Below, piece by piece: positions 1 through 45,176 of a stretch of 64,000 bases of DNA. The stretch's first letter is position 1, and every line of letters begins with the position of its first letter. Below the pieces are notes generated by a model, which did no database searches, was not told the origin of the DNA, and worked only from the letters and a program-made list of their open reading frames with translations. A program made the translations under genes and the position numbers. This DNA comes from Eledone cirrhosa (lineage: Eukaryota): positions 11,312 to 75,311 of the forward strand of contig CAXHJY010001213.1 in the NCBI GenBank assembly GCA_964016885.1. Reading direction: 5' to 3'.

Positions 1-1986
1 ATATATATGTATGTATGTAAGTTGTGTGTGTATGTATGTATATGTCTATGTGTGTGTATATATATATGTATGTATATCGATGTACGTGTATGTATGTACA
101 AGTATGTCTATGTATGTGTGTATGTATGTGTATGTATATTTATGTGTATGTGTATATATATATATATATATATATATATATATATGTATGTATATATATA
201 TATGTATATATCTTTATTATTTATTTTTTATATATATGTGTATGTGTGTATATGTTGTGCGTGTGTGTGTGTGTGTGTATATATATCTTTATATATGTGT
301 ATGTGTATGTTCGTGTAGGTGTATGTGTGTATATGACTTTATATGTATGTGTGTATGTGTGTATGCGTAAATATTTCTATGTGTGTGTACATGTATGTAT
401 GTGTGTATATGTGTATGTGTGTGTATGTGTATAAGTATGTGTATATGTATATATATATATATATATATGTTATATATATATATGTATATGTATATGTGTG
501 TGTATATATATATATATATATATATCTATATGTTTTTCTATTTGTATATGTATGTGTGTATAGGTATATACCTTTCTCTTTGTATTTCTAAGTTGTGTGA
601 TAGTGTAGTGGTGTTTGTATGTATATACCGATATATAGATGCGTAAGTATTTGTCTGTATGTATATATGTAAGTCTGTATATATTTGTGTGTATATATAG
701 CTATGTATGTGTATATCTGTATGTATATTAGTATGTAAGTCTTGTATATGTGCATGTATGTGTGTGGTTATATATATCTGTGTCTATATAGTATGTGTGA
801 TTATATGTATATGTGTGTGTATATGTACGTGTATATACATATATATGTATATATATATATATATATATATATATATATATATATATATATATATGTATAT
901 GTGTATTTGTATGTATATGTGTATATGTATGTGTGTATATGTATATGTTTATATATATGTGTGTATGTATGTTCTTAGTGTGGATGTGTGTATATGTATG
1001 TATGTGTTTGTATATGTGTGTATATTTATGTATGTGTGTGTGTGTGTCTATGTGTATATATATGTATATTATATATATATATGTGTGTGTATATATATAT
1101 ATATATATATGTATGTGTATATATGTATATATATATATTTATTTTCTTGATATATTTCTTTTTTCTTTTTTCTTTTTTCTGTTTTCTTTCTATTCTTTCC
1201 TCTTTAATGTTTATTTATTATTTTTTATTTTCTTAGTTTATAGATACATCTATATTAGGCAGTCTGCTCAGACCGTTGAATACTGACCTCTCCCCCCCCC
1301 TCCCACCTAATTTCTGTATCTTGATCTAAAAATGTGTGTGCCAGTGTTTTATGTGAGTGAATTAATATCCATGTGCTTATGATTTTATATCCACATATAT
1401 AAATGTGAGTGGGGGTGTGTGTGTGTTTGTATGTTCGTGGTTATGTGTATATTTATGCATATACGCGCGTGTATGTGTGATTGTACGGATATGTGTGAGT
1501 ATGAAAAAATATATTTATATACTTAATTTCATAAGTGTCAATACGCATCTTATCTGTGCATTATAAACTTACAGAGACATTAACCTTGAAATTTTGTATT
1601 TGCATCCATCCTTTTAGTATGCGTATACAAATTATACATACATTTTTGTAAAATATGTGTAAGGGTTTTACATGTATATACACACACCGAACTGCATTTA
1701 ACCCTTTGTGTTTTCATTGGTCAATTTTGTTCCCAAACGGACCTGAAATTTTGAATTGTTGTTATTATCAATAAATATACTTCATTATTTCTGAAGACGG
1801 CGTATATATGTGTTGGTATGTATATTTAATCTTGATAATTTGTATAATTTTGTATAATTTTGTACATAGATCTGTTGAATATGCATACCAATTCTAACAC
1901 ATATATATCCTAGAAACGATCGTTAAATAATGAACTTTTTTTGTTTAATATAAAGAATTGTTTATTCATTATTTGTTTAATATTTT
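1..1986 (+). mobile_element. 3' UTR/3' end of a Penelope-like element, microsatellite-rich, ending in a hammerhead and (TA)n
   Basis: 1230-1986 is a diverged inverted homologue of about 9340-10200, which lies downstream of the GIY-YIG ORF at 12028-12760 (-). It contains the HHR at 1781-1934. The left boundary is uncertain. Confidence 0.6.
1781..1934 (+). ncRNA. Type I hammerhead ribozyme with very long stem II
   Basis: Stem I TTCATTATTT/AAATAATGAA (10 bp), core CTGAAGA (1791-1797), a stem II hairpin of about 115 nt, GAAA (1913-1916), palindromic stem III CGATCG, cleavage triplet GTT. Confidence 0.85.
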
Positions 1987-2020
1987 ATATATATATATAT
2001 ATATATATATACATATATAT

Positions 2021-5000
2021 ATGATGGCTGCCCCCTCGTTATTGAGTATGGCCATTGCACAATTAAAAAAAAAAAAAAAAAAAATAAAATAAATAAATAA
2101 ATAAAAAAATAATAATAATAATAATAATAATAATAAATAAATAAAAAAAAAAAAAAAGGGAAAAGATATATATATATATATATATATACACACACATATA
2201 CATACATATATATATACACATATATATACACACACACATACATACACATACATACATATATACACACACACATACATACACATACACTCACACATATATA
2301 CACACATACATTAATAACAATAATAATAATAATAATAATAATAATAATAATAATAGCAATAATAATAATAACGACAACAACAATAATAATATACATATTC
2401 ATATATATATACACACACACGCACGCACATAAGCATATCTACCCACACACACACACACACACACACAAACACACGATAGCAACTAACAGTGCTGCGATCG
2501 AATGTGGCTTTTTAGCCCAGCCAATGATCTAAAATGTCTTGCACAGAGTCGGCAACCAAAACATTTACTGGGAATAGTCGGCTGTGGTTGGAGTTCGTGT
2601 ACTTTTGCATGTCGCTTGAGTCCTCCTGCTGATTTACATTCTCTACCACATGTTTGGCAAGCATGATGAGTAGCATCTCCAACAGCAGCCTGGTAGTCAA
2701 CCACTGGTCTTACTTTATGACTGCGAAGATGACTTTCGAGTCCAGCTTTGCTTAGGCAGAGTCTCGCACAGACGCTGCATGTCAGAAACATAGGAGGACC
2801 CTCGCCGTCTGGAAGTGCAACAGCAATACCCTTCCTCACGTCCCGCTTTACTTTCTCGTGTGCGATTCGAGATGCCTCAAAGGCAACTTTTCCCTCATAT
2901 ACAGTCTTTCTCCATTTATTACGATCAGCAGCAATATTTTCCCATGTATCAGCAGAGATGTTAGCGTCTTTCAGAGAGGCCTTCAAGGAATCCTTATACC
3001 TCTTTTTTGGTTTATGTGGCGGTCGTTTTCCTTTAACCAACTCTCCATAGAAGAGTTGTTTTGGTATTCTAGAATCCTTCATCCTGGCAAGGTGACCACT
3101 CCAACGGAGTCGCTGCTTAAGCACAAGAGCTTCTATACTGTCACACATAGAGCTTTCCAAAATCTCGACATCACTGATGTGGTCCCTCCAGCGAACGCCA
3201 TGTATCCGTCTGAGACACATCTGATGGAAACGCTCCAATTGCTTAAGGTGGCGTCGATATGTGACCCAGGTCTCGCAGGCATAAAGAAGACAAGAGAGTA
3301 CACATGCCCTGTACACCTTTACCTTTGTCCTCCTGCATATGTCTCGCCGACCCCAGAGTCGCCTTTCTAGCTTTCCGAAAGCATCACTTGCTTTCCTAAT
3401 CCTAAGTGAGATCTCACTGTCAAGGTTGCCGTATCGATTGACAGTGCTTCCCAGGTAGACAAACTGATCAACCACTCCAAGTCGTTTGCCATACACATAG
3501 ATGTTTGGTTCAGTGTACTGCCTACCAGGTGCAGGTTGGTACATGACGACGGTTTTCTTGAGACTGACAGTCAAACCCAGGGCAGTGCAAGCGTCAGAAA
3601 ATACATTCAAAATGTGCTGCATATCACTCTCTGTGTGCGCTACAAGATCGCAATCATCTGCATACAAGAGGTCTCTTATGACTGATGTAAATACTTTTGT
3701 CTTCGCAGCAAAGCGCCTGATGTTAAATATGCTGCCTGAGGTTCGATATCGGATGTAAACACCATGCTCGCAATTCCTGAATGCAATACAGAAAACCATT
3801 GCAAAGTATATGGCAAACAGGGTCGGTGCTGGAATATCCCCCTGTTTCACTCCATTTTTTACTGAGATAGGCTCCGACATGCTACCTCCGACATTAACCC
3901 AAGCCTTCATGTCGTCATGGAAAGACCTAACTAAAGCAAGGAACTTATCAGGGCAACCAAGTTTCTGGAGAACCTTCCATAATGCATCTCTGTTGACAGT
4001 ATCGAAAGCCTTTGTCAGATCGACAAAAACCTGATACAGATCCAAGCCCTGTTCAATGCACTTCTCCTGGAGCTGTCTAGCTGAGAAGATCATATCAGTA
4101 GTGCCGCGTCCAACACGAAAACCAGATTGACTTTCAGGAAGGACACAATCTGCAATGTGTGTCAGCAGACGGTCCAGAAGCACCCTACATAAAACTTTCC
4201 CCACGACAGAAAGCAATGATATACCTCTGTAGTTCCCACAATCATTCCTGTTACCCTTTCCCTTGTACAAGACCACCATTACTGCATCTCTCCAGTCCTC
4301 AGGCACGGATTCATTAGCCCATATCCTTCCAAACAGAGAGTGAAGATGTTGCAGGAGTCTCTCACCACCATATTGTAGGAGCTCAGCATGTATGCCATCC
4401 ATACCTGGAGATCTTCCACTGTTCAGCTTCGAAATAGCCACTGCAACCTCCACAAGTGTCGGAGGTTCTGCGAGAGCTACTTTCACAGGACTTTCCGGAA
4501 TGAGATTGAGGAAATCTTCACTGACGACAGACGGCTGATTCAAAAGATCATCAAAGTGCTCTCGCCACCTTCGTAGAATTCCCTGTGAGTCACGAAGAAG
4601 TTCTTTGCCATCCTTGCTGCGAATCGGTGTCACCAGAGAAGAAGACGGTCCATAAACCTCACGCAAGAGACTGTACAACAGCTTTGTGTTATTGCAATCA
4701 GACGCAGTTTGTATCTCACCAGCCTTCTCACTCCACCACTGATCCTTCATCTGAGAAAGACTCCGCCTAACACGTGATTTTACATCCCTGAGCTCCTCAT
4801 GCAACGTATTCCTCTCCTGTGGTCTTGCCGTCAAGTAGCGTGACAGAGCGCGCCTCTTATCAGCCAACAAGTCATCTATATGCACATCCTTCTCATCAAA
4901 CCAGTCCTGATGTTTTCTCTGCACCAATCCCAGAACACGTCTGCCTACATCATAAACCGACTTTTTAAGAGTCGGCCAATCCTCACCAAGATCTGCAGCC

Positions 5001-43961: not shown

Positions 43962-44032
43962 TATTTTATTATGCGCATTTCAAAAACAAATATCATCATG
44001 CAATAATATTTGTGTTTTCATCAGATAAAATA
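43962..44032 (-). ncRNA. Type I hammerhead, same family as 32290/32418
   Basis: 43930-44062 is nearly identical to the left arm of the 32256 palindrome but is not folded back. Confidence 0.85.
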
Positions 44033-44534
44033 GGAAGACATGATATGAAGGTTAAAAAACACTTGTGAATAGTGCAGTTTTAAATCAACATATCAGTTTT
44101 AAATCAACATATTTGCATTGCTTTATTGTACTACAATAAAACTCACCTCCTACATATATATATATATATATATATATATATATACAAGTTAATATAAATT
44201 AATATATGATAAACACATAAGTGTTTGTATTGCAAAAGACGAAGTTAGCTAGAATGAAATAAACTAATTAAAATAAATATAGTTTGTCCGTCTCGATATA
44301 AATCAATAAAAACAAGCTCATATTGGCAAAAGTCGTGATTCCTGGACAAATTTAAATTTCAAAATCCAAACCTGCTCCGTAGATGAATTTGAACTTCAAA
44401 ACCTAAATATGTTTCGTAACGGTGGTATAAAAAGTGAAATATTCAAATCTTCTGTGCTTATCAACAGGAATCCAGAAAAATTAGTACATTTCACCTCCAA
44501 AAATTTTGCAGGACTATATATATATATAAAACAA

Positions 44535-45176
44535 TCGCTAAAACAATCTCTATACCTCTCATTTATATTTATACTCGGATTCTTTTCCTGGAGTGCTTAA
44601 ACTATCTGTGACTAATCCCGGTTTTTTTCATAAAAACTGTGATAATTATTGCTATTTTTGCTGAACTCCTTTTGTGGAGTTTTTTTCAGAATGTATTTGA
44701 CTGCTATTTCTTGTAAATAAACATTCACTTACATCCAGACGTCACTAGCCCCGTTTTTTCCCCATGTGCTTTTTCATAACTACACATGATGGCGAACTAG
44801 CCAGTTTTAGAATTCCCTTTTTCGGATTATAATACTGTGAGAGCCCTGGTTTTCTGTTGAGCTCTGCTGATGAATGAAATCCAATCGTGACCATCTCCAC
44901 TTTAAGACTATACAGAGCATTTGTTGTTATTCCAAATTGAAGGATAAGTGTTTTAAACTTTATTTTATCATGAGTTAAAGGTCTATTGATTTTTCCCTGG
45001 ATTGCACTAAATTCTGTGGATGAATTTGTATCCTGATTCTCTTTTGAGATGAGTTTGAATTATTTTTCCTAAATCTTACGTTAACTACTTTTCCCATCTT
45101 GACGTTATAGTCGCATATATGTTATAGAATGCTGTTAGCTTCTCGCTAAAACAATCTCTATACCTCTCATTTATAT
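44535..45176 (+). mobile_element. 608-bp diverged inverted relative of 43211-43869, with terminal direct repeat and partly deleted HHR
   Basis: TCGCTAAAACAATCTCTATACCTCTCATTTATAT at 44535 and 45143. The HHR remnant at 44861-44918 keeps GCTCTG CTGATGA and TA CAGAGC but has lost the stem II 3' strand, the GAAA and the stem III 5' strand. Confidence 0.75.

Follow-up and report, generated by a model that had tools for sequence, protein, structure and literature searches.

The 64,000-nucleotide (nt) window analyzed here, positions 11,312 to 75,311 of Eledone cirrhosa contig CAXHJY010001213.1 (assembly GCA_964016885.1), makes up the final 64 kb of a 75-kb contig from a 3.0-Gb genome and is very rich in TA microsatellites. 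It is also rich in hammerhead ribozyme motifs of several unrelated families, and the question it raises is what these motifs belong to and how they came to be inserted. We consider it very probable that the hammerheads are those of Penelope-like element (PLE) 3' ends and of tandem repeats mobilized by PLE proteins, with insertion from a circular template at two start sites. Most of the window motifs are the ends of dead-on-arrival truncated insertions, and the diversity of hammerheads, which is to be expected in a PLE-rich genome, is well explained by known classes; what is new is the footprint left by one of the repeats, of 310 bp, whose insertions have two arms, one short and one tailed end, and a single haplotype.

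A type I hammerhead descriptor (CUGANGA core, GAAA, UH, and three stems, with a mismatch at the stem II base and a long stem II tolerated) matches 25 motifs in the window and none in 100 block-wise dinucleotide shuffles, which is the number, and these are the sites, of the approximately 25 intact hammerheads proposed in an earlier model-made reading of this DNA (the original prediction). Ten are single motifs (1781+, 8839-, 8966+, 9401-, 19423+, 32290-, 32418+, 42957+, 43469-, and 43962-) and 15 lie in an array of the 310-bp repeat (6 minus, 9 plus); they group into seven sequence clusters, in keeping with the predicted minimum of seven families. From their sequences all 25 are type I hammerheads and are predicted to self-cleave. 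The total hinges on accepting a U.U-type mismatch at 10.1/11.1 and long stems II: a stricter descriptor matches 22 motifs (mean 0.01 and maximum 1 in 300 shuffles), and the strictest matches 7. At least 18 of the 25 are mismatched at the first stem II pair, and motifs 1781, 9401, and 42957 have a C.C mismatch near the stem II base. An Rfam scan of the window gave no hammerhead family among the 150 of 206 matches listed, only microsatellite-driven microRNA matches, and a crude scan of low sensitivity found no scrambled-order hammerheads in the window.

Such motifs are common throughout the genome. A sample of 68 evenly spaced 10-kb stretches (680 kb) contains 45 (0 in five shuffles), or ~66 per Mb, so that the window's 10 nonarray motifs in 64 kb represent only about twice the sampled density. 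Six of the seven families are named here for the palindrome that forms stem III (CGATCG, GTAC, CGCG, CACGTG, TGCGCA, and TATATA), and the seventh, at 43469, has an ordinary 7-bp hairpin in its place. Exact-pattern matches across the genome, for which reversed control patterns gave 0, number 11,086 for TGCGCA, 6,816 for CGATCG, 5,981 for GTAC, 4,609 for CGCG, 3,100 for CACGTG, and 907 for the TATATA family of 42957.

Four of the families end elements that code for their own reverse transcriptase (RT) and endonuclease. By sequence, the CGATCG, CACGTG, and TGCGCA hammerheads are ends of Hydra-clade PLEs, and all three families have a hammerhead in the pseudo-long terminal repeat (pseudo-LTR), insertion at (TA)n, and inverted, truncated, tailed copies. 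The CGATCG hammerhead at 1781 to 1934 (+), with a 115-nt stem II, lies in a 3' pseudo-LTR with a short end at (TA)n, and the open reading frame (ORF) of the corresponding Hydra PLE sits just upstream of the window (locus L032); the second, at 9401 to 9553 (-), is the tailed 3' end of a 5'-truncated Hydra PLE containing the ORF piece at 12031 to 12726 (-). This piece is C-terminal, with a CxCX5C linker, a GIY-YIG-like endonuclease, and CxxC and CxH motifs, and is 5'-truncated at (TA)n. Elsewhere the CGATCG hammerhead is followed by a PLE N terminus and RT (L211 and L214), and the endonuclease matches upstream of it are 90 to 96% identical to that window ORF. The CACGTG hammerhead at 19423 to 19539 (+) lies in the 3' pseudo-LTR of a second Hydra family, to which the C-terminal endonuclease piece at 18248 to 18457 (+), 5'-truncated at (TA)n, belongs; the hammerhead follows an endonuclease 98 to 100% identical to that piece in L272 to L278, L282, and L283, precedes an N terminus and RT in L273, and is part of a 3.56-kb unit in L272/L273. 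The TGCGCA family is represented by an inverted Hydra pseudo-LTR with a left arm at 32290 to 32360 (-, short end) and a right arm at 32418 to 32488 (+, tailed end) and by a third copy at 43962 to 44032 (-); in L221 its hammerhead, N terminus, RT, endonuclease, second hammerhead, and (TA)n follow one another in a 3,334-bp unit.

The endonucleases of the Hydra families are ~30 to 45% identical to each other, and their translations contain the CxCX5C linker, CxxC, and CxH without CCHH; Pfam matched nothing on the window Hydra ORF pieces. A near-full-length Hydra ORF at 59535 to 62320 (+), broken into three pieces, contains RWR, DKT, the RT core, CxCX5C, and the endonuclease, which an insert rich in Asn and Ser separates from the RT. 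The RWR and DKT motifs were read from this ORF, and the N termini of the three Hydra families matched it by tblastn at 34 to 43%; its own hammerhead is not visible because the long AT-rich 3' region passes the contig end. By eye, the window RT resembles the printed Hydra-1_Obim protein, and the best named relatives of the window Penelope-like RT are Argonauta and Octopus proteins. The GTAC hammerheads at 8839 to 8877 (-, left arm, tailed end) and 8966 to 9004 (+, right arm, short end) belong to a single insertion, an inverted end of a 5'-truncated PLE that, from its sequence, is of a different type. A 4.2-kb GTAC unit in L217 codes for an RT and a GIY-YIG endonuclease (Pfam RVT_1 and GIY-YIG), and its translations contain DKG, a CX4CxxC linker, and a CCHH-type motif in the C-terminal GIY-YIG; the label Neptune-type is thus putative, having been assigned from motifs, and Nematis is possible.

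The shared (TA)n context that had been predicted is borne out on a genomic scale. Of the 45 sampled motifs, 2 lie at the edge of a stretch and 3 are internal units of tandems; among the other 40, a (TA)5 tract is found within 200 nt on the 3' side of 32 (background, 0.152) and on the 5' side of only 6, with paired arms counted as if independent. Among the module-ending motifs in the window, (TA)5 is found within 200 nt downstream in 10 of 12 (background, 0.167) and within 260 nt in 12 of 12. The original prediction took this to suggest that one (TA)n-specific endonuclease mobilizes many nonautonomous hammerhead RNAs, and it proposed that the palindromes would act as a family-specific pairing code, an account that we now regard as very unlikely and that in its strict form is largely refuted. 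Every family does end in (TA)n, and in three no protein has been detected, although the other four have an RT and endonuclease of their own, so that at least four enzymes from two clades are present, which opposes the single-enzyme idea.

The pairing code also fails in its strict form, although the palindromes are kept self-complementary. Predicted stem III energies for the six palindromic families are +2.4 to +6.0 kcal/mol for the monomer and -3.2 to -10.5 kcal/mol for the duplex; stem III would thus be stable only as a duplex, matching the dimer model, in which cleavage via a palindromic stem III has already been published (PMC4209133 and PMC6765202). In a survey of 26 clusters in 1.65 Mb of genomic DNA, overlapping loci included, perfect palindromes are present in 18 and are fixed within most families, as a code would have it, whereas the other 8 clusters have none. 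Among the 18 palindromic families TATATA is used by three and CTAG and CAATTG by two each, and CGATCG occurs in two unrelated lineages; reuse by unrelated families is at odds with a code, and exclusivity is seen only when stem I is also counted. Thus, of 153 pairs of palindromic families, stem III is compatible in 5, stem I is swappable in 1, and both in 0, a weak sign of exclusivity because it is expected of unrelated sequences. The sole pair with compatible stems I, a TGCGCA and a TATATA family, does have unlike palindromes, which is what a code would predict. Because stem I is also exchanged in a double hammerhead, specificity, if it matters, would come from both stems, and because the pairing partners are adjacent in cis, no code would seem to be needed.

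Within families, selection keeping stem III self-pairing is visible in the sequences, as counted by eye. Among the first 100 listed copies of one family, 85 have CAATTG, 6 CGATCG, 3 a decayed CGATCG, and 6 other single changes; among the first 100 listed of another, 55 have TATATA, 42 TATGTA (with two U.G wobbles), 3 others, and none TACATA. The shifts from CAATTG to CGATCG and from TATATA to TATGTA probably each represent one historical event. The TATATA/TATGTA family, which shares stem I with the TGCGCA family, has 43,760 genome pattern matches and is absent from the window. Overall, the motifs, their (TA)n context, and the self-pairing palindromes of the original prediction stand, with six different palindromes in six families as described; a single enzyme and a pairing code, in their strict form, do not.

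The remaining three families are tandem units (310 bp, ~630 bp, and 1.3 kb), each with a type I hammerhead and without detected coding capacity, the latter two having been examined in few loci. In sequence organization they appear to fit non-LTR retrozymes, and they are likely mobilized by PLE proteins. The TATATA hammerhead at 42957 to 43030 (+) is the end of a 1.3-kb tandem repeat family without a PLE protein match; the 43469 to 43550 (-) hammerhead is part of a ~630-bp repeat unit that is tandem in locus L230. The 310-bp CGCG family forms a divergent array with a left arm at 13170 to 15036 (-), containing 6 hammerheads and a short end at the unit-internal TA tract, and a right arm at 15035 to 17931 (+), containing 9 hammerheads and a tailed end; the arms overlap by 2 nt. 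The 1.3-kb family is likewise found in two-armed divergent arrays (4 minus and 6 plus units at C1:130882144-130893766; L224 and L225). The 310-bp family is very young, with private variation of 0.05% per base. A nearly unchanged 310-bp unit is also present in contig sets, of unknown kind, under four organism codes (X1, X2, X3, and X6).

Arrays of the 310-bp family end at two fixed sites in the unit, either at 64 to 76 (the internal TA tract) or 30 to 35 nt further on, at 100 to 109, and both differ from the predicted cut after unit position 247. In the first 100 matches of each of two end-specific searches, which gave 56 tailed and 59 short ends on C1, 43 of 43 divergent pairs within 16 kb, among the matches listed, have one short and one tailed end (29 ends are unpaired); forward-strand counts of 756 and 710 suggest ~1,500 insertions of the family. 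We mapped 51 loci, of which 45 are simple two-armed arrays (44 short plus tailed and 1 disrupted), 1 has an extra piece, and 5 are one-armed; 34 were prechosen as short-tailed pairs, and the 10 unselected two-armed loci obey the same rule. Arms reach 8.4 kb, and their joints (n = 45) have an overlap of 1 to 8 nt in 29, are blunt in 6, and contain extra bases in 10. The short/tailed rule also holds in 11 of 11 GTAC, 12 of 15 TGCGCA, and 7 of 9 CGATCG rows, which are not de-duplicated and in which two exceptions involve an internal pseudo-LTR. In 5 of the first 10 arrays the short-end arm stops immediately beyond the TA tract, but the larger set shows no such tendency, with starts at unit positions 45 to 80 in 10 of 44 short-end and 8 of 45 tailed arms.

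The polarity of the ends bears on whether one arm could have been copied from the other, through fold-back or self-priming of the initial complementary DNA (cDNA) or from an antisense template, as for rotifer PLEs; self-priming has been proposed in PMC3846280, and short hairpins with palindromic joints are common in the GTAC, CGATCG, and 8590 families (spans of 33 to 60 nt with recurrent spacings). In the 310-bp arrays, though, the arms start at unrelated unit positions, only one arm has a tail, and in 20 of 44 the short-end arm exceeds the tailed arm in length, so neither arm copies the other. Fold-back is therefore refuted for the arrays and, as a general explanation, scarcely credible, and it may explain the very short hairpins. 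The 8590 family is a case of the latter: it is very abundant, its copies are mostly tiny hairpins with the inversion inside stem II (spans of 33 to 60 nt in 24 of 47), and these inversions suggest RT stalling or fold-back there.

Of 24 arrays in which each arm has two or more full units, 23 have the same fixed variants in both arms (14 nonreference and 9 reference), and with 9 haplotypes among 32 loci random arm pairing would match only ~30% of the time. In L239, L259, L263, and L266, variants confined to the single locus are shared by all units of the two inverted arms, for which a one-unit bottleneck is needed. Judged from these haplotypes, both arms would derive from one source after such a bottleneck, and a ribozyme-made circle would be the simplest template. 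The same elements could also be copied from an uncut linear multimer, with ribozymes uninvolved and arrays lengthened and homogenized at the DNA level; a homogeneous source array would likewise yield one haplotype in both arms, and in PMC11167929 insertion of ribozyme mutants is normal in vitro, with no RNA sequencing reads beginning or ending at the cut site. We think this unlikely, since it has to accommodate the one-unit bottleneck and arms reaching 8.4 kb from a linear template. It also sits poorly with the positions of the variants: of 12 fixed variants, 7 are within the ribozyme (at N7, loop II, and stem positions), where they keep or improve pairing, and none is in the core or palindrome. 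Sparing of the core, together with compensatory changes in stem III, indicates that the RNA fold is under selection.

In the circular-template model that we prefer, two tandem hammerheads on one transcript would pair via their palindromic stems III, with swapped stems I, and excise a unit, which would then be ligated into an RNA circle. A PLE protein would nick both (TA)n strands, and reverse transcription would begin at two fixed internal sites, one per strand and 30 to 140 nt apart; the two cDNAs would roll round the template, halt at random, and join via 1 to 8 nt of microhomology. In vitro, a PLE protein does nick and extend both target strands, and two internal RNA start sites set the tail (PMC11167929). 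For the more specific proposal, that each 310-bp insertion is the fossil of a single reaction between a PLE protein dimer, one ribozyme-made RNA circle, and two internal start sites, we would give even chances.

Several observations weigh against these readings. Common haplotypes indicate one source and not necessarily one molecule, the arms of the L267 array, the single differing one of the 24, are of unlike haplotype, and array lengths rest on the assembly. No PLE protein was found in the three noncoding repeats by tblastn searches with Hydra queries or in a single ORF listing, and no parent PLE has been identified for them, a genome-wide search not having been made. In the in vitro system of PMC11167929, hammerhead cleavage is dispensable for insertion, the main substrate is unprocessed RNA, and start sites are alike between strands, and a 2026 preprint (10.64898/2026.07.22.740005) reports cleavage in one of nine predicted retrozymes.

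The Eledone elements combine features of several described systems. Like the published Hydra PLEs (PMC8557442), they have a CxCX5C linker, DKT (in the ORF at 59535 to 62320), CxxC/CxH without CCHH, a C-terminal endonuclease, a canonical hammerhead, (TA)n insertion, partial tandems, and inverted 5'-truncated copies with a tail at one end; the supplement of that paper includes Hydra-1_Obim of Octopus bimaculoides, with a (TA)n preference and a hammerhead. Unlike the published examples, Eledone has several Hydra families, each in thousands of copies; RWR replaces RWK in the 59535 to 62320 ORF, tails measure ~90 to 140 nt rather than 30 to 40 nt, and units of 3.3 to ~7 kb have microsatellite-laden 3' untranslated regions. 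Non-LTR retrozymes (PMC7229834; Li et al. 2026) are alike in their short tandem units of low GC content, which have a single type I hammerhead and no protein, in the number of families per genome (16 in a coral), in a weak palindromic helix III, in a U.U mismatch at the helix II base, and in the circular intermediate and PLE dependence proposed for them, whereas two-armed divergent arrays, the short/tailed rule, and (TA)n targeting are not described for retrozymes in the accessible portions of these two sources; expression and circles have been demonstrated for published retrozymes, whereas the Eledone repeats are known from DNA. The minimal PLE hammerheads (PMC4209133 and PMC6765202) share a short palindromic stem III, many consensus families per genome, opposite-strand pairs 100 to 700 bp apart, and a U3-A8 core variant, with Eledone differing in palindromes of 4 to 8 nt, a stem II of up to 116 nt, and a family-fixed U4A core. 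Poseidon PAc in vitro (PMC11167929) is similar in nicking and extension of both strands, two tail-defining start sites, and an AT-rich target, but the Eledone arrays use each start site once per insertion and indicate a one-unit template.

The mode of tandem and inverted PLE insertion and the role of the hammerhead are called open in PMC8557442 and PMC11167929, and beyond the cited papers we found nothing in the openly readable literature on twin priming or head-to-head arrays in PLEs or retrozymes or on octopus hammerheads. The 310-bp footprint opens the circular-template, two-primer model to a direct test, for which a small RNA and a (TA)n target would suffice, and the ~1,500 near-identical insertions are a ready substrate for reconstitution. 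If the model is true, a single-circle reaction would explain the inverted ends and tails of PLEs generally and would tie retrozymes mechanically to PLE proteins, and the hammerhead would gain an in vivo role overlooked by the in vitro system.

Four further motifs had been described as degenerate. The one at 44861 to 44917 (+) is a decayed copy of the 43469 family, in which GAAA and the 5' side of stem III are deleted. The minimal hammerhead at 31626 to 31660 (+), predicted at 31621 and with stem III CG, is 5'-truncated, and its core is intact in relatives. The inverted hairpin at 8532 to 8660, from another Hydra-linked family, contains just the 3' half of a hammerhead whose core is of the U3-A8 type, and the apparent CTGAC core at 8590 is created by the inversion joint; CTGANGA is found within 150 nt upstream in 0 of 47 copies of this family, and a full U3-A8-core hammerhead, downstream of a Hydra endonuclease match, was read by eye in L112 and L275. 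The inverted hairpin at 36414 to 36546 (+) contains a hammerhead-like motif (36477) with a CAGAAGA (U4A) core, which is present in most core-reaching copies, with stems I to III intact. Copies are found in the window (36414 to 36546 and 27375 to 27469) and in L041, L042, L043, L056, L216, and L229, the last with a 1,081-bp tandem. From these copies the U4A core is fixed in the family and is not, it appears, a product of decay; a term search of the accessible text of PMC3088659 did not find a family-fixed U4A core. The variant-core scan descriptors were too strict for counting the U4A and U3-A8 families. Inverted arms around a (TA)n tract at 36650 to 37100 contain CAGA(A/T)GA words, with no hammerhead assigned.

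Other repeats in the window include a 640-bp sequence in two 98% identical copies (19860 to 20500 and 32797 to 33439) beside (TA)n/(GA)n, which hold several CTGAAGA words and where the hammerhead scans matched none. A retroelement with an RT and a restriction-like endonuclease is represented by two decayed copies recognized by eye (24755 to 25640 and 47760 to 49324), of which one piece was tested and had no Pfam match. A long interspersed element ORF at 2486 to 6100 (-) is intact-looking and codes for 1,205 amino acids, with an apurinic/apyrimidinic (AP) endonuclease, an RT, and C-terminal C2H2 fingers in an RTE-like architecture.

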